A stretch of DNA of 64,000 bases. Source: Mobula hypostoma. Lineage: Eukaryota. Below, in pieces: positions 3,388 to 47,437 of the stretch; the stretch's first letter is position 1, and every line of letters begins with the position of its first letter. Below the pieces are notes generated by a model. The model did not search any database, was not told where the DNA came from, and was given only the letters and a program-made list of their open reading frames with translations. The stretch is taken from NCBI RefSeq assembly GCF_963921235.1, contig NC_086097.1:1736001-1800000 (forward strand), in the 5' to 3' direction. The position numbers and the translations under genes are program-made.

Positions 3388-3640
3388 AAGGAATAAAATG
3401 GATGATCTTGAAATTCAGCTACAGTTTGGCAAATATGATGTTGTGTCCATCTCTGAGACTTGGCTAAAGGATGGCTGCCATTGGGAGCTGAACGTCCAAG
3501 GATATACGGTGTATCAGAAAGATAGGTTAGTAGGCAAAGGGAGTGGTGTGGCTCTGTGTATAAGAAACAATATTAAATCATTAGAAAGAAATGACATAGG
3601 ATCGGAAGGTGTAGGGTCTCTGTGGGTTGAGCTAAGAAAT
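3388..3640 (+). mobile_element. CR1 APE endonuclease fragment
   Basis: RNKMDDLE..YDVVSISETWL..GSGVALCI; near-identical to about 32035-32270. Confidence 0.8.
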
Positions 3641-4729
3641 GTAGAGAAGATGTTGAAGCTGGAAGGTGTCTTTTCCACTGACAAGTTTGATGTGGGTTGT
3701 TCCAAGAGCACGCGTCACACTATCTGGTGACCGAGGATAGCCTGTTCAGAGAAAGGTTGTGGCGAATGGCCCCTGGAGAAGTGAAGGACGTTTGGCAGCA
3801 TTTGTGTAAGTTGAAGGAAGCTGGGATCATCGCTGAGTCCCGAAGCCCCTATGCGTCCCCAATAGTAGTGGCGCGAAAGAAGAATGGGAAGGTACGGATG
3901 TGTGTGGTCTATAAGACTCTGAACAGGCGCACCATCCCTGACCAGTATACTGTCCCGAGGATTGAAGATGCGCTGGCCTGCCTGAGTGGTGCAAAGTGGT
4001 TCAGTGTGCTGGACTTGAGGAGTGGATATTATCAGATCCCCATGAGTGAGGTTGACAAAGAGAAAATGGCAGTTATATGTCCACTGGGATTTTTCCAGTT
4101 CAAAAGGATGCCCAGGGCATCTCGGGAGCTCCTGCCGCCTTCCAGCAGGTCATGGAGAAGATGGTGGGGGATATGAACTTGCTTGAGGTGTTCATATATA
4201 TGGATGATCTCATAGTATTTGGATCTACCTTAGAAGAACATGAAGCGAGGCTGCTGAAAGTGCTGGGCCACCTGAAAGGTGGACAAGTGCCAGTTCTGCC
4301 AAACATCTGTTAGCTACATTGGGCACATAGTCTCATCATTGGGGTAGCTACAGACTCAGCTAAGATCAAGGTGGTTACCACTGGGCCAAGACCCCAGACA
4401 GTGAGCACTCTGCGCTTGTTCCTCAGGTTCTGTGGTTACTATTGGAGGTTTGTAAAAGGCTACACGAAAGTGAGTCACCTGTTGAATCAGCTTCTGTGCG
4501 GTTACCCTCCCTTGGGGAAGAAAGGGAGGGGAAAAAAAGGACAGGAAGGTGGAGAGTATCTTAGCCCATCAGAGCCCTTTGGACTGAGGTGGGATGCAAA
4601 ATGCTAGGAGGCTTTTCAGTCGCTGAAGGAGCTGCTGACCCAGGCACCGGTGCTGGCTTTTGCGGACCCCCGGTTGCCGTATGTACTGCACACGGATGCC
4701 AGCCGAGAGAGTTTAGGGGGCATCATGTA

Positions 4730-6322
4730 CAGGTGTCCCTTGCTTTACGAAACTTCACTGTTACGAAAGACCTACATTAGTTCCCTGTTTTCGCTTTCAG
4801 AAGATGTTTTCACTGTTACGAAAAAAATCAGCGCGCGAAAAAAATCAGTGCAGGATAAAAGGCAGTGCATGCCCTGAGCAGCCACTCTCCCCCGGATTCG
4901 GAGCGGCATTCTCGCCAGCATTGCTTAAACACGTGCCTGTGAGCAGCCATTTGCAAGATGAGTTCTATGGTATCGGAAAAGCCTAAAAGAGCTCGTAAGG
5001 GTGTTACACTTAGCGTAAAACTAGACATAATTAAGCGTTTCGATCGTGGTGAACGAAATAAGGACAAAGTGAGTTTGGCTTGTGAAAGCTGACGAACATG
5101 ATGTTGAAGAGGTTTTGGCATCCCGTGACCAAGATCTGACAAATAAAGAGCTGATGCAATTGGAAGAAAAAAGGATAACAAGCGAAACCGAATGCAGTAG
5201 CCAACTGAACGTGAAGCAACTGCGTGAGATTTTCGCTGCAATGATGAAGTACATCTTTAACTTTGAAAGGGTACGTAGGTTTAGGGGATATTTACAAGAT
5301 GGTTTGAGTCCTTACAAAGAACTGTATGATCTAAAAATGCACGAGGCTCAGCAGTCAAGCAAGACTTCCACATCAGCCACAGCAGATGACGAACCTCAAT
5401 CTTTGACATTGAGGCGGGCAGAGATAGAAGATGAGCTGCCTGCCCTAACGGAAACAGACAATGATGAGATGACACCCCAGTGTCCCACCACCCCAAAGCC
5501 CAGGCTACGGACAGATACTGATTCGCGGAGAATGCAGCGGTAGCCGGGAGGCACACAACACATCTTTAAGAAAAAATCCAAAATAAACATGCTAATTAAT
5601 TAGGTGCCGCCCGACACGTAATTGTCGGCCCAGATCAAAGACGACGCAATCAGCAATCGCCTCTGATCTGCGCCGACAATTACCTGCCAGGTGACACCTA
5701 ATTAATTAGTATGTTTGTTTCTGCTTTTTTCTTAAAGATGTGCTGTGTGCCTCCTGGCTACCGCTGCACCCCTGCATGCTTCGTGACAATGTACCAGTCG
5801 GCGGCCTGGAGGGTGGGGGCCACTGCACCACCCAACCTGCGACGACTCAGTCTAACACGTCATCATCAGTGTGCTCGGCGCTGAACCAATTCTGGTAAGT
5901 GATACTACACTGTACATACATTATTTCTACTTTATATAGGCTGTGTATTTTTACGTGTTATTTGGTATGATTTGGCAGATTCATAGCTTAAAGGTTACTG
6001 GAGAGCGCTTGCGCCATGTTTTTGCCAACAGCGCTTGCGTGAGATTTTCTGCCGACGGCGCTTGCGTGAGATTTTCGCTACGGAGAACAGTTCAGTAATG
6101 ACTGTGGAAAAGTATTTCTACTTTATATAGGCTTTATATCATTTCTGTTTTTACTATATGTTACTGTTATTTTAGGTTTTATGTGTTATTTGGCATGATT
6201 TGGTAGGTTATTTTTGGGTCTGCGAAGGCTCACAATATTTTCCCATATAAATAAATGGTAATTGCTTCTTCGCTTTATGATATTTCAGCTTACGGACCGT
6301 TTCATAGGAACACTCTACCTTC
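4730..6322 (+). mobile_element. Internally deleted Tigger/pogo-like DNA transposon inserted at a TA in the Gypsy RNase H
   Basis: TA|CAGGTGTCCC terminus; ATG at 4958 gives MSSMVSEKPKRARKGVTLSVKLDIIKRFDRGERNKD (psq-type HTH) joined to the Tigger-like C-terminus (DVEEVLAS..LTNKELMQLEE..PYKELY); DDE core and right TIR missing. Confidence 0.75.
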
Positions 6323-6899
6323 GGATGGCAGGTTGAGGCCCATTTCATTTGTCAGCCGGAGTCTGTCACCCTCTGAGAAAAACTATCCCAAGTACAAGTT
6401 GGAATTTCTGGCATTGAAATGGGCGGTGGTGGATAAGCTGAGTGACTACCTCTATGGGGCCAAGTTTGAGGTGAGGATGGACATCAGCCTCCTAACTTAT
6501 ATCCTGACCTCGGCGAAACTGGATGCCACAGGCTATCGGTGGTTGGTGGCGTTGTCTGCCTATGATTTCAGCCTGAAGTACCGGCTGGGAAGCAGGAACG
6601 TTGATCTGATGCTTTGTCCTGGCGGGTGCATGAGGGACTGGACAGAGACGAGGAGTGGGAGAGCGATCCTGCCTCTGGGGTGAAGGCCATGTGTCAGTTT
6701 GCCATCACCGTAAGGGCAGAGGAAAAGGAGGGGCAGGATTGAGTGATGGATCAACATGGCTCAGGTGGAGAGGACGAAACACGTGTCAGTGCCTCCATTA
6801 CTAGGAGAATGGCCTCGGTTGGAGTTGAAGAACCAGATCTCATACCGGATCACGTCACTCCAGACCGATCCCAGCATTGCCAGCTGGTTCTAGCTGAGA

Positions 6900-7366
6900 A
6901 ACAGAGAAACATAGAAAACATACAGCACAATACAGGCCCTTCGGCCCACAAAGCTGTGCCGAACATGTCCCTACCTTAGAACTACCTAGGCTTTACCCAT
7001 AGCCCTCTATTTTTCTAAGCTCCATGTACCTATCCTGGAGTCTCTTAAAAGACCCTATTGTATCCATCTCCACCACCATCGCCAGCAGCCCATTCCACAC
7101 ACTCACCACTCTCTGCGTAAAAAACTTACCCCTGATATCTCCTCTGTACCTTCTTCCAAGCACCTTAAAACAATGCCCTCTTGTGGCAGCCATTTCAGCC
7201 CTGGGAAAAAGCCTCTGACTATCCACACGATCAATGCCTCTCATCATCTTATACGCCTCTATCAGGTCACCTCTCATCCTCCGTCACTCCAAGGAGAAAA
7301 GGCCGAGTTCACTCAACCTATTCTCACAAGGCATGCTCCCCAATCCAGGCAACATCCTTGTAAATC
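6900..7366 (-). mobile_element. CR1 3' fragment inserted in Gypsy pol
   Basis: MRGDLIEAYK..TRGH..FFTQRVV ORF plus CR1 3'UTR tail. Confidence 0.85.
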
Positions 7367-9296
7367 TAAATGAGAAGTATCGGAGGATGGCGTTGACATC
7401 ACTTCATGATGATTCTGGACATTTGGGGGTGGAAAAGACCTATGGACTGCTCAGAGACCGGTTCTACTGGCCCTGAATGAAGTCGGAGGTCAAAGAAGAC
7501 TGCAAGTCGTGCATTCGATGCATACGGTGGAAGACACTGCCTACGCAGGCAGCTCCTTTGTCCCACTTGCAGAGTGCAGGGCCCCTGGACCTGGTGTGTA
7601 TGGATTTCCTATCCATAGAACTCTATGCCCGCAACACAGCAAATGTCTTAGTCATCACGAACCACTACACCAGATATGCTCAGGCTTTTCCTGCCAAGGA
7701 CCAGAGGGCGTCCACGGTGGCCGAAGTGTTATGGGAGAAGTATTTCATTTATTATGGCCTTCCCAGTGAATACATATTGATCAGGGACGGGATTTTGAGA
7801 GCAGACTCATCCATGAGTTACTGGGCATGCTTGGAGTGGAGAAGTCGAGGACAGGGTGATCCCCAGCCAGAGAGGTTTAACTGGACCTTGCTAGACATTC
7901 TCAGGACCCTGGAGATCCGCAGGAAGAGCAGGTGAATTCAACATATTGGACATCTGGTTCACAGTTACAACTGTACCCAAAATAAGCCTACTGGGTACTC
8001 ACTGTACTATCTGATGTCTGCGCGCTAGGCAAGGTTACCCATTGACCTTTGTTTTGGGACTGACGAGGGCGACTTACCACCGAAGACTTATGTGAAGTAT
8101 GTGTCTTATATGAGAAGAGAGCTGAAAAGGGCTTATGAATTAGCTGGGGTCGTGGCTGCCAAACAGAATCAAGGGAGTGAGAGGAGGTACGATCAAAAGG
8201 TGAGGTTCTCCCAACTTCTGCCGGGAGACAGAATCCTCATAAGGAAATTGGGGCTACCTGGGAAACATAAGTCAGCTGACGGCTATGTTTCACACACCCG
8301 ATATGGTGGAGAGTCAGATGCCAAACCTACCAGTTTTCTGGGTGAAACCAGAGGATGGGAATGGGCCTGTCAAGATCCTCCATCAGAACCACTTGCTGCC
8401 CCTGGGACATGAGGTGCAGGTAGACCCAGAGCCTACACCTAGTAAGAGGACTCAGTGGAAACGCCGGGCAACTGCAGGGCCAACAGCAGGAGAGGTTAAG
8501 CCGGCCCCCACCCCTGAGAGGGATACTGATTCGGAGCATGAGCACCTGGATGTGTGGTATATGCTGCCTTTTGCTCACTCCCCAGTGATTGAGGAAGAGA
8601 CTCCTGGCCCTTCTCCCGCTGAGTCCGGTGGAGTTCGGCAGGGTGGGGGGGGGGGGAACAGCCTGGGTTGCAGCAGGACTCTGCGGAGAGGAAGTGGGGC
8701 TTGACCGTGGAACAGAGGGTTCTGAGTTGCAGGTGGGCACGAGGGATAGATCAGGGGAGGCCTCACCAGGTAGACCAGAAGTATCCCCAGTAGTGTCGGA
8801 ACCTGAAGAGTTAGATGACGGGGTGCAGAGGTTTCAGAGAATTAGGAGACCACGGGATAGGCTGGCCTACATAGCACCAGGGGAACAGAGTGTGACCCCT
8901 ACTGTGTTGGGGAGCGATGTCACTGCCTTTTATACCTGGACTGGACGTTGTGATTTGCAGGAATGACTGGCGAATTACCTCAATGTCATGAGGACATGAC
9001 TAAATTTGGTGGGGGTAGAGTGTAACATGCTGTAAGGTTTCACTGCTAATGTAATGGTTTCTCTGTAGCAGCAATGTTTGGGTTATGACTAGAGATAACG
9101 GGGTTTTGGAATGCAGGGCCTATCCAATGCAAGAAATGTTGTTCTTTCTTGTGAGTCTGGAAGAGAGATATTCGCAGTCTTTTGCTGGGGAGAGATGGGG
9201 AGAGAAGACACGAAAAGAGAGAGTTGGTAGACCGCTGGACGTAGTGGACTTGGAGCGAGGGTGCAAAGGTTAATGACAATCGGAGGAGGTTGATGG

Positions 9297-11504
9297 CGAA
9301 GAATAGAATCAGAGAAGACAGGAAATTTTTTTCATTGAGGAAGGGCAAATTATGAGGCTATAAGGCTGGAACTTGCTGGTGTGAATTGGGATGATGGTTT
9401 TGCAGGGAAATGTACTATGGACATGTGGTCGATGTTTAGGGATCTCTTACTGGATGTCAGGGATAAATTTGTCATGGTGAGGAAGATAAAGAATGGTAAG
9501 GGTGAAGGAACCATGGGTGACAAGTGAGGTGGAAAATCTAGTCAGGTGGAAGAAGGCAGCATACATGAGGTTTAGGAAGCAAGGATCAGATGGGTCTATT
9601 GAGGAATATAGGGAAGCGAGAAAGGAGCTTAAGAAGGGGCTGAGAAGAGCAAGAAGGGGGCATGAGAAGGCCTTGATGAGTAGGGCAAAGAAAAACCGCG
9701 AGGCATTCTTCAATTATGTGAAGAACAAAAGGACGACAGGAGTGAAGGTAGGACCGATTAGAGATAAAGGTGGGAAGATGTGCCTGGAGGCTGTGGAAGT
9801 GAGCGAGGTCCTCAATGAATACTTCTCTTCAGTATTCACCAATGAGAGGGAACTTGATGACAGTGAGGACAATATGAGTGAGGTTGATGTTCTGGAGCAT
9901 GTTGATATTAAGGGAGAGGAGGTGTTGGAGTTGTTAAAATACATTAGGACGGATAAGTCCCCGGGGCCTGACAGAATATTCCCCAGGCTGTTCCACGAGG
10001 CAAGAGAAGAGATTGCTGAGCCTCTGGCTAGGATCTTTATGTCCTCATTGTCCACGGGAATGGTACTGAAGGATTGGAGGGAGGCGAATGTTGTCACCTT
10101 GTTCAATAAAGGTAGTAGGGATAGTCTGGGTAATTATAGACGAGTGAGCCTTACGTCTGTGGTAGGAAAGCTGTCAGAAAAGATTCTTAGAGACAGGATC
10201 TATGGGCATTTAGAGAATCATGGTCTGATCAGGGACAGTCAGCATGGCTTTGTGAAGGGCAGATCGTGTCTAACAAGCCTGATAGAGTTCTTTGAGGAGG
10301 TGACCAGGCATATAGATGAGGGCAGTGCAGTGGATGTGATCTATATGGATTTTAGTAAGGCATTTGACAAGGTTCCACACGGTAGGCTTATTCAGAAAGT
10401 TAGAAGGCAAGGGATCCAGGGAAGTTTGGCCAGGTGGATTCAGAATTGGCTTGCCTGCAGGAGGCAGAGGGTCATGGTGGAGGGAGTACATTTGGATTGG
10501 AGGGTTGTGACTAGTGGTGTCCCACAAATCGGTTCTGGGACCTCTACTTTTTGTGAATTTTATTAATAACCTGAATGTGGGGGTAGAAGGGTTGCTTGGC
10601 AAGTTTGCAGATGACACAAAGGTTGGTGGTGTTTTTGATAGTGTAGAGGATTGTCAAAGATTGCAGAGAGACATTGATAGGATGCCGAAGTGGGCTGAGA
10701 AGTGGCAGATGGAGTTCAACCCGGAGAAGTGTGAGGTGGTACACTTTGGAAGGACAAACTCCAAGGCAGAGTACAAAGTAAATGGCAGGATACTTGGTAG
10801 TGTGGAGGAGCAGGGGGATCTCGGGGTACATGTCCACAGATCCCTGAAAGTTGCCTCACAGGTAGATAGGGTAGTTAAGAAAGCTTATGGGGTGTTAGCT
10901 TTCATAAGTCGAGGGATAGAGTTTAAGAGTCGCGATGTAATGATGCAGCTCTATAAAACTCTGGTTAGGCCACACTTGGAGCACTGTGTCCAGTTCTGGT
11001 CGCCTCACTATAGGAAGGATGTGGAAGCATTGGAAAGGGTACAGAGGAGATTTACCAGGATGCTGCCTGGTTTAGAGAGTATGCATTATGATCAGAGACT
11101 AAGGGAGCTAGGGCTTTACTCTTTGGAGAGAAGGAGGATGAGAGGAGACATGATAGAGGTGTACAAGATAATAAGAGGAATAGATAGAGTGGACAGCCAG
11201 TGCCTCTTCCCCAGGGCACCACTGCTCAATACAAGAGGACATGGCTTTAAGGTAAGGGGTGGGAAGTTCAAAGGGGGATATTAGAGGAAGGTTTTTTACT
11301 CAGAGAGTGGTTGGTGCATGGAATGCACTGTCTGAGTCAGTGGTGGAGGCAGATACACTAGTGAAATTTAAGAGACTACTAGACAGTTATATGGAGGAAT
11401 TTAAGGTGGGGGGTTATATGGGAAGCAGGGTTTGAGGGTCGGCACAACAATGTGGGCCGAAGGGCCTGTACAGTGCTGTACTATTCTCTGTTCTATGTTC
11501 TATA
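9297..11504 (+). mobile_element. 5'-truncated CR1 LINE, near-intact RT with frameshifts
   Basis: ORFs 9493-10566 and 10514-11284; TTCTATGTTCTAT tail; same family as 59105-61950. Confidence 0.93.
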
Positions 11505-17269: not shown

Positions 17270-17490
17270 TTCCACTACCTCTTGGTTAACCCTGATAACT
17301 GTGAAAATCCCAATAACCCTGGGTGAACCCTCCTGATTCTGTGATAATCCCACTAACCCTGCTAACGCTGTTATGATCCCACTAACCCTGGGTTAACCAT
17401 GCTAACACGGTTATGACCCCACTAACCCCGGGTGAACCCTGCTAACTCTGTGATGATCCCACTAACCCTGGGTTAACTCTGCTAACTTGA
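17270..17490. repeat. Degenerate ~40-bp tandem repeat rich in TAACCCTG
   Basis: Units such as ATCCCACTAACCCTGGGTTAACCCTGCTAACTCTGTGATG repeated about 5 times. Confidence 0.7.
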
Positions 17491-20594: not shown

Positions 20595-20907
20595 GAAACA
20601 GACTTTTCCCCTCCATCATCGGATTTCTGAATGGACAATTAGTCCACGAACACTACCTCGTTAATTTTTTTCTTTGCTTTCTCTATTTTTGCACTGTACT
20701 AATTTTATAATATATTATATTCTCATTGTAATTTATAGTATTTGAATTATGCATTGCCTCAAAACAGCAAATTTCACATCATATGCTAGAGATATTAAAA
20801 TTGATTCGATGATAATCACACTGACTGTTAATCGCACTAACTCACCAACCGGGTCAATCGCCCTGACTCTGGGTTAACTCACTGACTCTGCGTTAATCTC
20901 ACTAGTT

Positions 20908-20970
20908 GACTGCGCCTCTTCCTATAGATGCTGCTTGGCCTGCTGCGTTCACCAGCAACTTTGATGTATG
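20908..20970 (+). mobile_element. 63-bp Penelope-tail mini-insertion
   Basis: Identical to 28181-28243; flanked by direct repeat TCACTAGTT (20899-20907 / 20971-20979). Confidence 0.85.
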
Positions 20971-20999
20971 TCACTAGTTAACCCCTCTGTTTCCATTTG

Positions 21000-21262
21000 T
21001 GACCCGGGCGGGTTCCCGTTCATCGCGTGTGCGGTAGTGCGGTGAACTCGGGGCAAGCGAGTGCACGGCCACACAAGCCCGCGCGCCACCGAGCACGTAC
21101 GCGCTTTTCCGGGAATTGGTGGCGTCACACGTTGTTGTCTCGATGCCCTGGTAACGGCGGACGTGTTTGCACCAAATATGGTCAGAGCTGCCTCACAGCG
21201 CTGATTGGACGGAGAGCCTGACGTCACGGGGGCAACGGCGTCAATGTGGCCCCACCCGCGAA
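21000..21262. promoter_or_regulatory. CpG-rich candidate distal immediate-early enhancer (or promoter)
   Basis: TTCCGGGAA 21107-21115, CCAAATATGG 21172-21181, CTGATTGG 21201-21208, TGACGTCA 21219-21226, extra GGCGTCA half-sites; CpGs retained within a CpG-depleted TE background. Confidence 0.65.
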
Positions 21263-21264
21263 GG

Positions 21265-22255
21265 GAAAGAGGGGGAGGGAGAGAAAAGAGAGAGAGAGAG
21301 AATGAGAGAGAGAGAGAAAGAATGAGAGAGAGGGAGAGAGAAGGGAGAGAGGGAATGAGAGAGAGGGAGAGAGAATGAGAGAGAGAGAGAATGAGAGAGA
21401 GGGAGAGAGAGAATGAGAGAGGAGAGGGAGAATGAGAGAGAGGGAGAGAGAATGAGAGGGAGAGAGAATGAGAGAGAGAGAGAATGAGAGAGAGGGAGAA
21501 TGAGAGAGGAGAGAGAGAATGAGAGAGAGAGAGGAGAGAATGAGAGAGAGAGAGAGAATGAGAGAGAGGGAGAATGAGAGAGGAGAGGGAGAATGAGAGA
21601 GAGGGAGAGAGAATGAGAGAGAGAGAGAGAATGAGAGAGAGGGAGAATGAGAGAGGAGAGGGAGAATGAGAGAGAGGGAGAGAGAATGAGAGAGAGAGAG
21701 AGAATGAGAGAGAGGGAGAATGAGAGAGGAGAGAATGAGAGAGAGAATGAGAGAGGAGAGGGAGAGAACGAGAGACAAGGATAGAGAGAGAATGAGAGAG
21801 GAGAGAGAGAAAGAGAGAGGGAGAGAGAGAAAATGAGAGAGAGAGAATGAGAGAGAGGGAGAGAGAATGAGAGAGGAGAGAGAGAATGAGAGAGGGGGAG
21901 AGAGAATGAGAGAGAGGGAGAGAGAATGAGAGAGGAGAGGGAGAGAACGAGAGACAGGGATAGAGAGAGAGGAGAGAGAGAATGGGAGAGAGAGAGAGAG
22001 AAAATGAGAGAGAGGGAGAGAGAATGAGAGAGAGGGAGAGAGAGAGAATGAGAGAGAGAGAGAGAGAGAGAATGAGAGAGGAGAGGGAGAGAGAATGAGA
22101 GAGAGGGAGAGAATGAGAGAGAGAGAGAATGAGAGAGAGGGAGAGAGAATGAGAGAGAGAGAGAGAATGAGAGAGGAGAGGGAGAGAACGAGAGACAGGG
22201 ATAGAGAGAGAGAATGAGAGAGATGGAGGGGAGAGAGAGAGGAGAGGGAGAGGTA
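21265..22255. repeat. Compound (GA)n/GAGAAT polypurine microsatellite, about 1 kb
   Basis: Almost exclusively G/A on the plus strand, with periodic AAT interruptions. Confidence 0.97.
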
Positions 22256-23401
22256 GTAAGTGGTGGGAGTGTGGGAATGCATGAGGTTGAGAGAGATGAG
22301 GGGTGTGGAGGATGGAGGGGTGAGAGAGGGAGAGTGGAGTGAAAGACCAGAAAGGAGAGAGTGTGAAGAGATGAAGGAGGAGGGAGAGAAAGAAATGAAG
22401 AGAGGGGGGAGTGAGGAAATAATGAGGTCGGGGAGGAGGAACTACAGGGAGAGATTACAGAGAGTGGTTATCAGATGAAGCGGATTGTATACAGAGAGTG
22501 TGAGGGACAGCAGAGTACACAACATAAGGGAGATACAGTATTTGGTGGCCATTTTCCCTCATGCCTTTCCACATTTACTCAGATCATTGTAAATTTTCCC
22601 CTTGACACCATTTCCCTCCACAATCCTCACACTTAAAGATACCACTACTGTCCAAGACTCCATCCATCTGACATGGAGAGGCAGAGGTGGGGTAGGCCTT
22701 AATCTACGGGTGGTGGAAAGAGAGACCAGCATGTAAATGTCATCACAAATAAGGCAGGACAATGCCTCTACTTTCTTAGAATTTTGTATGATTTAGCAAT
22801 TTTGTATCATTTGGCATGTCATCTAAAACTTTGACAAATTTCTATAGATACACAGTGGTGAGTATAGTGACTGGTTGCATCACAGTCTGACAGAAGAACT
22901 ACAATGTCCAGGAACCGAAAAGCCTACAAAAAGTAATAGATATGGCCTAGTCCATCACAACCAAAGACTTTCCCATCACTGAGCTGCTCTACAAGGAGTC
23001 ACTCCACAAAAAGCTGTCATCCACCATCAAGGGCCCCCACCATCTCGGCCATGCTCTCTTCTCACTACCACAGGAGCCTCAGGACCCACACCACCCGGTT
23101 CAGGAACAGGAACCCCTCAACCATCAGGCTCCTGAACCAATGTGGATACCTTCACCCACCACAACTCTGAACTGATTCCACATTGTATGGATTCATTTTC
23201 AAGGACTCAGTACAACTCATGTTCCTGGTATTAATTAATTAATTAATTACGATTTGTTTTCTTTTGCACCCTGGTTTCTTTCCTTATCGATAGTTTTTCA
23301 TAAATTCTGTTGTGTTTGTTTTCACGTAAATGCCTGCAGGAAGATGAATCTCAAGGTGGGACAGAGTAACATGTATGTATTGTGATAATAACTTGACTTT
23401 G

Positions 23402-41579: not shown

Positions 41580-42510
41580 CTATCAGGAAGGCCTTCAAGT
41601 TCTCCGCTTCTCTCTGGACAACAGACCCGACCAGCTCCCCTCCACCACCCTCCTCCGTCTGGTAGAACCGCTCCTCACCCTTAACAATTTCCCTTTCTGC
41701 TCCTTCCCTCCCCGCTCTTTCTCAGAACTCAGGGTATAGCCACGGGCCGCGGCCATGCTTACCGTTTCATTAGCGAGTGGAACAATTTATGTTCCAGGTC
41801 CCTCAGGGCCACATTGACGACTGCATGCACTCATTCTGAGCTCGTCAATTTCATCAACTTTCCTCCAATTTCCAACAGCCCTTAAATTCCCTTAGTCCAT
41901 TTCTGACATCTTTCTCGGTCTCTCTGGAGACAAGACTGTCCAATGATTTTTTTATTTATAAACTTCCCGATTCCCACAGATATATTGACTCCACCCAAAC
42001 TGTCACTTGAATAAATGCTGTTCCCTTTTCTCGGTTCCTTCGTCTCCGCAGCATCTGTACCCAGGATGAGGCCTTCATTTGCAGAACATCTGAAAGAACG
42101 GGGTTCCCTTCCTCCACCATTGACGCTACCCTCACCCGCATCTCCTCCATCCGCCGCCGCACCTGATGAAGGGTTTCAGCCCGAAACGTCGACCATACTC
42201 TTTTTCCATAGATACTGCCTGACCTGCTGGGTTCCTCCAACATTTTGATGTGTTGCTGGGATTTCCAGTATCCGCAGATTATCTCGTTTGTGAACAGTCT
42301 ACGTTTCGGGCCGACTCCCTTCACCGGGCCACAATTCTCTGTAATTCCTGCCATCTTCATTTGGATCAAAATACATCTCCCAATTTCTCAGTTCATCTCC
42401 CCTCCCCCCGCCTTCTTATTCTGGCATTTTCCCAGTCCCGGCGAAGGGCGTCAACTGTTTATTCATTTCCATAGATACTGGCTGAGCTGAGTTCTCCCAG
42501 GATTTTTGCT
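41580..42510 (+). mobile_element. Decayed Penelope-like RT fragment with rearranged termini
   Basis: DNRPDQ.PS.T.LLRL.E..LTLNNF and AVPFSRFLRLRSIC PLE-RT remnants; CTGATGAAGGG..CCCGAAACGTCGAC at 42163-42193. Confidence 0.7.
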
Positions 42511-43408
42511 CTAAACGGGTGTTAAAGATTGCAGCGCTAGCTCGGCAGCGGGAGGGGAGGGGAGGGGAGGGGCGGGGCGGAGAGGAGAGGAGACTGAGTG
42601 AAACACTCAGAATACACACACACACACACACTGTGCGCGCCTCTTCCCCCAGGGCGCTGAGCTGTTGAATTTGGGGATGTTCAGAAGTGGTCTGGTGGTT
42701 TTTAATTTCCTGGGTGAAAGGGAAAAGGATTGGAGGCTCTGAGTCGGAGGTTGGCAGTGAGGGAGGGGACGGTGAAGAAGTTCAAACTCTGAGCGCGGAG
42801 GGAGGTAGAGCGTCAAGATACGAGCTGCAGCTCCGCAAACGTTCCGAACCTTTCCCCTGTACAATATCCGGCCAGCCCTTTCCATTTCATTTCGGACCGC
42901 CAACCCGCTCCAGCGGTTCCGTTTAGCACTCCGCTGAAGGCAGGCCATACAGTATATACTTTATGTTTAAACGACAGGCAGGAATGCACAGTGATGGTTC
43001 CTGTGGTGGGGGTATGTAGCCCTAGAGGGCACAGCCTCAGAACTAAGGGACCACCCTGCAGGGCAGAAAGAAGGAGCAATTGTTTTTAAACCCAGAGAGT
43101 AGTGTCGAATGCTCTGCCACAGACTGTCAAGTTGGTGCGGATTCGCCGACCAGCAGTAGCGGGCCAGAGGCACGGGTGCAACGTCCAAGCCCTCCTGCCT
43201 ATCATTCCCCGCCCAGAGGAGAGCCTTCGCATCGGCAGAACTCACAGGCGACTCGGGGAGTTTGTACGCCCTGCCTGCGGGCGAGTGTGCTGGTGTTAAA
43301 TCAGCGGCGTGCTGGCTGGTGGGCCGCGCAGCTCGTGCGCAGGAAGGGCCTGTGGCGCGCGCGCGCTCTCGAAACACGTAAACAATAACCATAGTTTATG
43401 GGTTAACT

Positions 43409-43545
43409 TTTATTGATGCACAAATTAAATAGAAAAAATAAACATCTCTAGAAATAAATTAAATCAGACCGTTTTCATGGAAAACTGATATTGGAAACAC
43501 GACAGATGAAAAGCCGCGAAATAAATAATTGATAATTTATACAAT
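43409..43545 (-). promoter_or_regulatory. fos 3'UTR instability elements and polyA signal
   Basis: Sense UUAUUUAUU nonamer (43520-43528), further AUUUA pentamers, GUUUUC-CAU-GAAAAC stem-loop (43471-43485), AAUAAA at 43409-43414 followed by a GU/U-rich tract. Confidence 0.8.
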
Positions 43546-43628: not shown

Positions 43629-44033
43629 CTACAAGGCCAACAGCGTGGGCGAGTTCAGGGGCCCGGCCGGGTGATCGGAACTGGAGAAGCTGAAGGCGAA
43701 CGTGGGGGGCAAGGCCCCAGGAGTGGTGATGGGCACGGGGGTGCAAAGCGGCTCGCAGTCGGCGGCCAGTGACGGGTAGAGCGGCTCCCAGTCGGCCAGG
43801 CTGATCAAATCAAGGTCGGGGACGGAGCGGCCCGTGTCAGCGACGCCTCCTTCCGAGAGGGGGTCCCTGTCAGTCGGCTGTGCCGGGGACCCCGCTTCCT
43901 GGGCCTCCCGCTCGGCCACCTTGCAGAGCGGCCGGTGGGCAGCCAGCGAAACCTCCAAGCGCTCCTTCTCCTTCAGTAGCGCAGCCACCTCGGCTTCCAA
44001 CAGCGACTTCTCGCTTTCCAGGCGCTCGGTTTC
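43629..44033 (-). CDS. fos: c-Fos-like coding exon 4, leucine zipper and C-terminus (134 aa + stop)
   Basis: Acceptor CCTGCAG|GAA; heptad leucines ETERLESEKSLLEAEVAALLKEKERLEVSLAAH; RSVPDLDL, DWEPLY, EPLCTPV motifs; ends NSPTLLAL-TAG. Confidence 0.95.
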   Translation of the reverse strand, partial: ETERLESEKSLLEAEVAALLKEKERLEVSLAAHRPLCKVAEREAQEAGSPAQPTDRDPLSEGGVADTGRSVPDLDLISLADWEPLYPSLAADCEPLCTPVPITTPGALPPTFAFSFSSSDHPAGPLNSPTLLAL

Positions 44034-44334
44034 CTGCAGGGAGAGGAGGAGGAGACAGGGGTCAGAGCGGACCGAGCGCAATCACTTACCCAAACAGGGC
44101 GGACCCTGGGCCCTGCCACCGAAAGCGGGGCGCAGGCATTCTTCCCCCCCCCCCGCGGGGTCTCAACATCTCCTGCCATCCAACCTCAGCACTTACCAAC
44201 CCTCCCCTCTATCCGGTTCACCGTGAGCCTGCACCCACCCCGGTGTGGAACTGATCTACTCCACCAGCGCCACGCACCACCCCCACCCTCTCCCGGTGCC
44301 GCCGCACGGCAGCCTCCTCCTGCCTGACACTCAC

Positions 44335-44442
44335 CGCCTGCAACGAGTCCGTCAGCTCCCGCCGTCGGTTGCGACATTTGGCCGCTGCCAGTTTGTTCCG
44401 TTCACGCCGGAGCCGCCGCTTCTCCTCGTCCTCGGGGCTGAG
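44335..44442 (-). CDS. fos: c-Fos-like coding exon 3, basic region (36 aa, 108 nt)
   Basis: Acceptor [47 protein letters not shown]; donor GCG|GTGAGT; the 108-nt length is typical of the Fos basic-region exon. Confidence 0.96.
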
Positions 44443-44636
44443 CTGTGAAGATGAAAGGCAGGGGGTGAGAGTCTGCCTACCCGACGCGAACTGAGCACGC
44501 AAACCAGAACGTCCCACGCCCTCTCCCCCACCCACACAACCGGCTGCCTGAGGACCCGGTCTCACCCCTCCCGAACCGCCGTTCCAGCCCCATCACGTTG
44601 CTCACCCAACCCCTCCTGAGCTGCAGCCCAGCTCAC

Positions 44637-44822
44637 CTGCTCAGTCCTGCCCTTGCGAGCCGAAGCTTTGCCGAGGCCTGTCCTAGCATAGGCGTTGCTG
44701 TAAGGGTGCGAGCGTCCCGGAGACGGGGCGATGGATTGCAGGCTGGGCTGCACCATCCACTGTAGTTCCCGGTTGCTGCTAACTGCCGTCACCGTCGGCA
44801 CGAACGGATCGCCACAGAAATC
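44637..44822 (-). CDS. fos: c-Fos-like coding exon 2 (62 aa)
   Basis: Pyrimidine-rich acceptor [49 protein letters not shown]...KGRTEQ (FxPTVTA..LQWxVQP Fos motif); donor CAG|GTGAGC. Confidence 0.93.
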
Positions 44823-44901
44823 CTGGCGGAGAAAGGAAGGTCAGATTAGAGATCTAGTTCGTCCGCACCTCCCCTCCTGCTGTTTACGAGACGACACTTT
44901 G

Positions 44902-45035
44902 TGAATGGAGCGCATGTGACGGCGCGGGGTCCGGGCTATTAATAATCCGGGGGCGCGTCACTGGCTCATCTACGTCACTGCTGACGCAGGAGGCTCGTCT
45001 GGAGTCTCCATGAATGGAGCAGATTTATCAATGAA
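44902..45035 (-). promoter_or_regulatory. fos intron-1 regulatory cluster (CRE half-sites, MEF2/TATA-like site, Capicua octamers)
   Basis: TGACG/CGTCA at 44917, 44956, 44973, 44982; CTATTAATAA 44936-44945; TGAATGGA 44902 and 45011; TCAATGAA 45028. Confidence 0.65.
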
Positions 45036-45183
45036 GCCAGTTACAACCCGCAGGGGACGGGAGTAGGGGGGGTTGAGTATATCGGAAACGGCCGGTCGCA
45101 GCTCCCCGTGCCCAAGAAGCGACAATTGGTGGCGGTGAACCGAACATATATAATCGATCGGCGAATCCAGAGTTGTTGCCTAC

Positions 45184-45315
45184 CTGAGCGCTGTTGGCAG
45201 GGCTGCCGAGGCTGGAGAAAGAGTCGGCGGGCGAAAAGTACTGTGAGTCTCCCATCGAGGGCGAGTTGCTGCAGCGAGAAGATGAGTCGTAGTCGGCGGG
45301 GAAGCCCTGAAACAT
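45184..45315 (-). CDS. fos: c-Fos-like bZIP transcription factor, coding exon 1 (44 aa)
   Basis: ATG at 45315; [44 protein letters not shown] resembles the Fos-family N-terminus ([16 protein letters not shown]); ends at CAG|GTAGGC donor, phase 0. Confidence 0.93.
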
Positions 45316-45417
45316 GTTGCGGTTGCGGGTCCGGTGGGCGTGCGCTCAGTGTGTCCGCAGCTCCGCTCTTCCTAGTTCTCCCAAGTTGGGTCTGAGTCTG
45401 TGGAGGTGCGCCGCAGC

Positions 45418-45424
45418 TTTTATA
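45418..45424 (-). promoter_or_regulatory. fos TATA box
   Basis: TATAAAA followed by GCTGCGGCGC on the minus strand, about 105 nt upstream of the ATG. Confidence 0.85.
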
Positions 45425-45659
45425 GAGAGGGCCGTTCCATTCACAGAGCGTCGGCGGGGGGGAACAGGATCCACAGTCAGGCCAGCAGCTCAACTACTAC
45501 CGGCTCAGATAAACGGAGAAGCCACAGCAGCCTTAGATATCTACTAATCAGTTAGTAGCCGATATTAGGAGGCAGAGGTTCACTCATTCCAGCGGCCGGG
45601 ATTCAGACAGGATCGGCTGGTCCTCCACTGCACTAATGGAAGAGCCCACCGGAGACCCG

Positions 45660-45682
45660 ATGACGTACATGTCCTTATATGG
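45660..45682 (-). promoter_or_regulatory. Serum response element (CArG) plus adjacent CRE/AP-1-like site
   Basis: Sense strand CCATATAAGG-ACAT-GTACGTCA; perfect CC(A/T)6GG at 45673-45682, about 250 bp upstream of the TATA; same layout as the mammalian c-fos SRE (CCATATTAGGACATCTGCGTCA). Confidence 0.85.
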
Positions 45683-46575
45683 AATAAATACGAAACCAAG
45701 CCGGCATAAAAAGCCCCGCCCCTAGCAGCAGTCTAGGTTAAACAAATAAACAAGCCGAGTTATATAAATAACAAAGCAACACACAAAAATGCTGAGGAAA
45801 CTCGGCAGGTTAGGCAACAGCCGCGGCATGCCGAGGCCAGGTTAAATAAACAAACATTTCGGGTACAAGAAACAGACCCGGGTCCAGGGTATTCACCAGG
45901 ATACCGACCCCAATGGAGTAGAATCAGCTTTATTATCATTAACACGTGACGTGACTTGTTTTTCAGTAGCAGTACGGACATAAAATTTACTCTGTTAAAA
46001 AATAGCCCATGCCAACCACGCCTCCTCCTTGATAGACAAATTTGCCCGCGTTCGATCCTTAACCCTTCAAACCTCTCCCCTCAATGTACCTACCCAAATG
46101 CCATCAAATGTCGTACTTGAATCTGCCCCAACTAATTCCTCTGGCAGTTCATTCTAGGTACTCACTACGCTCTGTGTAAAAATAGTTACATCTCTGGTCT
46201 CTTTCCAATCTGATTTTATATCTGTGTCCATTAGTTTAGGACGCTTCCCTGTACTTGGGAAAAGACTATGGCAATCAATTCCCCTCATGATTTTATAAAC
46301 GTCTGTGAGGACACTGTTCATTTTCCTACAGTGCAAGGACTGAAGTTCCGGCGTGGCCAACCTCTCCCACTAACCCTGGCCCTCTAGTCCAGGCAGTGTC
46401 TTCATAAATCTCTTCTGCATTCTCTCCAGCTTTAACAGTGTGGCCAAAACTATACCCAATAGTCCACAAAGACAAATTGTTCAAAAGAAGAATAATGAGC
46501 TGGTGTTCATGGACCATTCAGAAATCTGATGGTGGAGGGGAAGAAACTGTTCCAGAAATGTTGAGTGTGGGTCTT

Positions 46576-47437
46576 CAGATTCCTGTACCCCTCCCTGATG
46601 GTCACAGTGAGAAGGGGTTGCTCCAGATTCCTGTATCCCTCCCTGATGGTCACAGTGAGAAGGGGTTCTTCCAGATTCCTATACCCCTCCCTGATGGTCA
46701 CAGTGAGAAGGGGTCGCTCCAGATGCCTGTACCCCTCCCTGATGGTCACAGTGAGAAGGGGTTATTCCAGATTCCTGTACCCCTCCCTGATGGTCACAGT
46801 GAGAAGGGGTTGCTCCAGATGCCTGTACCCCTCCCTGATGGTCACAGTGAGAAGGGGTCATTCCAGATTCCTGTACCCCTCCCTGATGGTCACAGTGAGA
46901 AGGGGTCATTCCAGATTCCTGTACCCCTCCCTGATGGTCACAGTGAGAAGGGGTTATTCCAGATTCCTGTACCCCTCCCTGATGGTCACAGTGAGAAGGG
47001 GTTGCTCCAGATGCCTGTACCCCTCCCTGATGGTCACAGTGAGAAGGGGTTGCTCAAGATTCCTATACCCCTCCCTGATGGTCACAGTGAGAAGGGGTCA
47101 TTCCAGATGCCTGTACCCCTCCCTGATGGTCACAGTGAGAAGGGGTTGCTCCAGATGCCTGTACCCCTCCCTGATGGTCACAGTGAGAAGGGGTTGCTCA
47201 AGATTCCTATACCCCTCCCTGATGGTCACAGTGAGAAGGGGTCATTCCAGATGCCTGTACCCCTCCCTGATGGTCACAGTGAGAAGGGGTCATTCCAGAT
47301 GCCTGTACCCCTCCCTGATGGTCACAGTGAGAAGGGGTCATTCCAGATGTCTGTACCCCTCCCTGATGGTCACAGTGAGAAGGGGTCATTCCAGATTCCT
47401 GTACCCCTCCCTGATGGTCACAGTGAGAAGGGGTTGC
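46576..47437. repeat. 48-bp minisatellite, about 18 copies, inside a minus-strand Rex1/Babar 3' fragment
   Basis: Unit CCAGATTCCTGTACCCCTCCCTGATGGTCACAGTGAGAAGGGGTTGCT with few variant positions. Confidence 0.97.

Follow-up and report, generated by a model that had tools for sequence, protein, structure and literature searches.

A single-copy, CpG-rich module downstream of the ray c-fos gene probably acts as an SRF/CREB/STAT-responsive distal enhancer of fos, placed like e5 of mammalian Fos. We put the probability of this reading at about 70%. The module lies on the 3′ side of the gene, within the 64,000-nucleotide stretch of DNA analysed here (the window). It is 22.1 kb from the fos poly(A) signal, which confirms the distance of about 22 kb given in an initial annotation, and its CArG box is 24.2 kb from the fos TATA box. 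The initial annotation had also read the module as a fos enhancer. That it is a functional cis-element by fos is well supported by the sequence, since its sites cluster non-randomly, its CpGs are retained, it is single copy, the stretch 1-42,000 showed no other coding gene and mammals offer a precedent on the same side of the gene. That fos is the target is what we infer. Collectively, the feature appears to be real and its function probable, and its kind is already known in mammals. The features of the locus are listed in Table 1.

Table 1. Positions of the module, its sites, its boundaries and the fos gene (window coordinates; "." in the strand column as recorded)
Feature	Position	Strand	Remark
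Candidate distal fos enhancer, single-copy CpG-rich module	20976..21262	.	
Left boundary: 63-bp insert 20908-20970 between 9-bp target-site duplications	20899..20979	.	Absent in organism B
Right boundary: 1-kb GA microsatellite	21275..22252	.	
GAS/STAT site	21107..21115	.	Sole strict GAS in 64 kb; unchanged in organism B
Half-CRE in TGGCGTCA context	21121..21127	+	Half-site at 21123; one mismatch short of a full CRE
RFX-like word	21142..21155	+	Weak; consensus fitted by the 3′ half-site only
Ets-like word	21157..21165	+	GGAC core, non-canonical; doubtful TCF site
Perfect CArG box (predicted SRF site)	21172..21181	.	Unchanged in organism B
AP-1-like TGCCTCA	21189..21195	+	7 bp past the CArG box; uninformative alone
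CCAAT box (NF-Y)	21201..21208	-	Alone in 6.7% of shuffles
Perfect CRE (CREB/ATF1, predicted)	21219..21226	.	Unchanged in organism B
Half-CRE at 21239 and CACCC box at 21250-21257	21237..21257	+	CACCC box presumably KLF/SP-type
c-fos coding exons 45315-45184, 44822-44637, 44442-44335, 44033-43629	43629..45315	-	276 aa; presumed target
fos promoter: CArG 45682-45673, half-CRE 45665, TATA 45424	45418..45682	-	

The module is 287 bp long with 62% GC and 32 CpGs (observed/expected ratio 1.16). When the window was sampled in 50-bp steps, the 287-bp frame starting at 21001 had the highest CpG density, above that of any frame in the fos gene. CpG islands are defined by a length of at least 200 bp, GC above 50% and an observed/expected ratio above 0.6, and the module exceeds all three values; it is too short for the stricter 500-bp rule. 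Scans using consensus sequences found every word of the initial annotation where it had been placed, including the perfect GAS, CArG and CRE sites, the minus-strand NF-Y CCAAT box and two extra half-CREs (21123 and 21239). In the whole 64 kb, the motif scan returned one perfect CRE, one strict GAS, 12 loose GAS words and two CArG boxes, one in the module at 21172 and the other in the fos promoter at 45673. The GAS, CArG and CRE classes are not a post hoc choice, since SIE/STAT, SRE and CRE are described as inputs of the c-fos promoter (PMC2888593). Among 200,000 dinucleotide shuffles of the module, a GAS occurred in 4.2%, a CArG box in 0.48% and a CRE in 0.78%; CArG and CRE occurred together in seven, and all three sites in none. 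A score of at least three of five motif classes was reached only by 300-bp segments over the module. The clustering of GAS, CArG and CRE in the module is far beyond chance.

Three further calls of the initial annotation were upheld only in part. An Ets-like word does stand just upstream of the CArG box, but it carries GGAC in place of the Ets consensus GGAA/T, and the assignment is weak. The minus strand of the GAS site also gives a CCGGAA Ets core, at a distance of about 57 bp, as against the GGAC word beside the CArG box. The TGCCTCA word is present, but with 27 occurrences in the window it is weak as an AP-1 site. The RFX-like word is likewise present but fits only as half-sites; the scan gave no match to the full RFX pattern and half-sites at 21150 and 21231.

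The gene at 43629-45315 is, judging by its protein, stingray c-Fos. Its four exons run on the minus strand from an ATG at 45315 to a stop at 43629, with a poly(A) signal at 43409. The predicted protein is identical to the Hypanus sabinus c-Fos-like protein (P0001) at 270 of 276 residues. For the last exon taken alone, the identity to Hypanus sabinus c-Fos-like is 97%, and the next matches are c-Fos of other rays and of sharks. Batoid c-Fos is short, with 264-278 aa in three matches and 276 here; the lengths elsewhere are 297-344 aa in the named shark matches and 373-380 aa in coelacanth and chinchilla.

In a scan of 45301-46600, the fos promoter contained, besides the CArG and TATA boxes and the half-CRE beside the CArG box, a second half-CRE at 45951. 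The bases 5′ of its CArG box are AT-rich. A consensus scan of 45374-46600 found no SIE/GAS, perfect CRE or Ets word. The scan of 45301-46600 likewise gave no TGACG from the CArG region down to the TATA box, nor any Ets word on the upstream side of the latter. The absence of an SIE/GAS, a CArG-adjacent Ets site and a TATA-proximal CRE from the ray fos promoter is a new observation. The STAT, TCF-type and cAMP inputs that are missing from the promoter may reside only in the distal module, which would carry the sole strong STAT site near ray fos if consensus scans reflect binding.

Several other features of the gene were recorded. In intron 1, at 44938-44986, CRE-like words precede an AT word that resembles a TATA box. 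By description rather than by alignment, this block resembles the tetrapod intronic fos promoter, described as conserved from Xenopus to man (PMC2888593), and it would extend that conserved promoter to cartilaginous fish. The 3′ flank of fos (42300-43400) is CpG-rich and may contain another regulatory element; a GCGC run stands at 43355-43366, and there is no CArG box. An almost CpG-free minisatellite with a 48-bp unit (17.9 copies, 93% matches) lies at 46576-47435, some 1.2 kb upstream of the TATA box of fos. An origin of the module by duplication from the ray promoter, from intron 1 or from the 3′ flank was rejected: the best of six tests was equalled by 9 of 300 shuffles, and in comparisons with the fos promoter equally high scores were reached by 27 and 104 of 300 shuffles.

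The composition of the module would also suit a CpG-island promoter without a TATA box that drives a signal-inducible, unannotated transcript and affects fos little. Such a transcript might be a lncRNA like human LINC01220 or come from a gene outside the window whose first exon lies far from the rest. The CCAAT box, CRE and CACCC/GC boxes and the CpG ratio are promoter-like, and possible splice donors occur at 20846 and 20522 (minus strand) and at 22319 (plus strand). The module is, however, only 287 bp long, has no TATA word and is flanked by repeats on both sides, and no coding exon was found in 1-42,000, where short or non-coding exons would escape. We consider this reading distinctly improbable. 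Promoter activity would also be compatible with enhancer action on fos: both roles are described for the human counterpart, which is given as the LINC01220 promoter and shows STARR-seq activity (PMC12780183).

The search for other genes also bears on whether the module serves fos. When 120 Fos-family proteins were compared with the window by tblastn, no bZIP exon came up beyond those of fos, apart from one marginal match (E 0.05), and no jdp2-type exon was seen. A Pfam search covered 73 of the 74 open frames of at least 55 aa in the unique parts of 1-42,000, leaving out the GA-repeat frame and the Gypsy-like region at 3.6-9.3 kb, and returned two retroelement-type and two sub-threshold matches. 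Rfam gave no match in the window, and a structured RNA at the module was rejected on this ground. In mammals, jdp2 and batf follow FOS, and the module might be an inducible enhancer of another gene further along the chromosome, with fos not its target. In 1-46,000, however, no host protein gene besides fos was found, and the mammalian element on the same side is linked to Fos, and we regard a different target as very unlikely.

Self-BLAST of the window found no copy of 20976-21262, and one contig was recruited at a likeness of at least 80% from about 96% of run X1, which is possibly the source and in which the filter may drop contigs. Both results speak against a multi-copy young transposon, and the module is single copy on evidence that is good though not final. 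Together with the observed/expected ratio, the self-BLAST result also agrees with the initial description of a CpG-retaining, non-repetitive patch. The same annotation had placed the patch among transposable elements. The surroundings are indeed transposon-rich, with self-hits covering 62% of 21263-43400, but the right flank is a GA microsatellite and no transposon. On the left, the 9-bp duplication belongs to the adjoining 63-bp insert, and this insertion (20899-20979) is recent or polymorphic, the contig of organism B having the empty site. Degenerate GGGTTAAC-type minisatellite stretches at 17354-17487 and 20810-20990 look similar by eye; they are 3.3 kb apart with transposon DNA between them, and are possibly one native stretch split by insertions. 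The pol fragments at 3640-9300 are decayed and Gypsy-like, with frames that by eye suggest RT, RNase H and an integrase; they are somewhat CpG-rich and single copy in the window. This element contains no copy of the module.

Words of the module were found in 11 of the 17 sequencing runs listed, belonging to organism A (four runs, share 1.00, possibly the source), B (four, 0.48), C (one, 0.24) and D (two, 0.08). No RNA run is among the holders listed, which carries no information on expression. The module was aligned to one run per organism, and contigs were obtained from A and B; C and D yielded none, a result that may be falsely negative and is given no weight in either direction. The B contig spans 20971-21272 at 98% identity with six differences, of which five are listed (21005, 21024, 21041, 21054 and 21131); at its depth of 2.8, any single difference may be an error. 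The share of 0.48 is the same in all four B runs, however, and is near the 0.58 expected from the listed differences. None of the five differences hits a named site, and with about a quarter of the bases in named sites, such sparing by five changes has a chance of about 1 in 4. The left 90 bp contain four of the five and the 212-bp core one, a contrast with Fisher p 0.01-0.07, depending on the sixth difference and with a boundary chosen after the data were seen. The loose end of the B contig is exactly window 20869-20898 (30 bases), joined to 20971, and the 63-bp insert is absent. Since B has the empty site, the module is older than the insertion. Since the 30-base flank is identical, B is too close to reveal constraint, and the conservation check thus shows the module in one close relative and no more.

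CpG transitions make up four of the five listed differences (P 0.002 for 4/5 and 0.005 for 4/6 under uniform change), and three of the four lie at the left edge beside transposon DNA. They hint at some germ-line methylation, against a fully unmethylated island, and those at the left edge would fit a methylated shore.

The CRE-CCAAT-CArG spacing pattern of the module occurs at no locus in viral contigs and at 41 loci in metagenome contigs. Outside the pattern itself, none of the 41 could be aligned to the module. A GAS at the ray spacing is absent from all of them, and two have any GAS within 200 bp. Among the metagenome loci, L018 (also L030 and L032) has tandem perfect CREs, four in L018, followed by CCAAT and CCTATATAGG. 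This DNA is non-coding, resembles a eukaryote promoter and is unrelated to the ray module. In a second family (L001, L007, L008 and kin), CRE-CCAAT is repeated at fixed spacing.

Least probable of all is that the module is a transposon or retroviral LTR relic, or a young GC-rich insert with undecayed CpGs, without host function: LTRs carry CRE and CCAAT sites, the module sits among transposons and it differs from organism B by CpG transitions, but it has no second copy in the window or in the contigs recruited from run X1, its spacing pattern is absent from viral contigs, it predates the adjoining insertion and its three rare perfect sites never met in the shuffles.

Read as a fos enhancer, the module would be kept open and largely unmethylated by NF-Y and constitutively bound SRF and CREB, as the known biology of these factors suggests. 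Growth-factor/Rho-actin or MAPK signals would act through SRF at the CArG box, calcium and cAMP through CREB at the CRE and half-CREs, and cytokines through STAT at the GAS. The active module would then produce a short eRNA, loop to the fos promoter and raise fos transcription within minutes. Since no good Ets site stands beside the module CArG box, the SRF partner may be MRTF rather than Elk-1.

Such an enhancer would be a compact element of 290 bp, isolated between repeats, whose serum, cAMP/calcium and cytokine inputs could be mutated separately. Activity in cartilaginous fishes is usually read out through fos, and the element would also be a marker for the regulation of the gene in this group. 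By position and inputs the module resembles e5, and true orthology to mammalian Fos e5/enhancer-3 is possible, at somewhat less than even odds; it would mean that multi-enhancer control of Fos predates the split between sharks and bony fishes. The ray fos promoter has no SIE, TCF site or TATA-proximal CRE, and the module may therefore be the main carrier of STAT and upstream cAMP (CRE) input in the ray. That it is both this carrier and an e5 orthologue kept since the jawed-vertebrate ancestor is a combination that we think unlikely. If the module carries these inputs, it would represent a natural case of immediate-early inputs shifting from promoter to distal enhancer. A downstream enhancer of fos with SRF and CREB input is what specialists would expect, and the module is a modest surprise; the bare ray fos promoter is the more unusual part. 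We found no description of a fos enhancer from a cartilaginous fish in titles and abstract openings, a search that most subscription papers fall outside.

The closest known system is the downstream enhancer of mammalian Fos (e5, Enh5 or enhancer-3), which likewise lies 3′ of the gene. A peak that lies at +12,136 relative to the Fos TSS in mouse fibroblasts is described as SRF-bound, TCF-enhanced, bound by Elk-1, DNase-positive and linked to a TSS by Hi-C, with 169 SRF reads compared to 161 at the Fos promoter and 34 at a site at -18.6 kb (PMC5179500). This peak is part of the mammalian precedent for the module. CRISPR activation of rat enhancer-3 (PMC7515708) and of mouse Enh5 (PMC6376993) is reported to raise Fos mRNA. 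Rapid activity-regulated enhancers are described as CpG-richer, pre-bound by SRF and CREB and producing eRNA by 20 min, and the reporter activity of e5, which belongs to this class, as requiring MEK (bioRxiv 10.1101/146282). The human region is described as an eRNA-producing candidate enhancer conserved between mouse and human (PMC12157839), conservation among mouse, rat and human is reported for e5 (PMC7515708, PMC12157839), and changes in 4C contact at E5 are mentioned in bioRxiv 10.1101/2025.05.06.652469.

The ray module is CpG-rich, as the class of e5 is described, and would share its SRF input, seen as a ChIP peak in mouse and as a perfect CArG box in the ray. It differs in distance, being 24 kb from the promoter across transposon-rich DNA compared to 12-14 kb in mammals (mouse e5/Enh5 is given at +12.1 kb, and the rat enhancer-3 guide lies 13.7 kb from the promoter guide). 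It also differs in that mouse e5 binds Elk-1, whereas the ray CArG box has no canonical Ets site alongside. By eye, the 20-nt rat enhancer-3 guide resembled 21239-21257, but this one guide scored at chance (23 in the module, 27 at best elsewhere and 23-28 for control guides). The published rat eRNA-3 probes and mouse Enh5 guides, which cover only part of the element, show no whole CArG, CRE or GAS by eye.

With the mammalian c-fos promoter as described (PMC2888593), the module would have the STAT, SRF and CREB inputs in common. Unlike that promoter, it has no TATA box and no gene behind it. On the plus strand, its order of GAS, CArG, AP-1-like word and CRE is that of the c-fos promoter, and a shared order is a 1-in-3 event for three strong sites. 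The junB 3′ enhancer, with SRE, CRE and STAT sites about 2 kb from its gene, serves a different gene; like the ray module, it is a downstream element of an AP-1 immediate-early gene that would unite SRF, CREB and STAT inputs.
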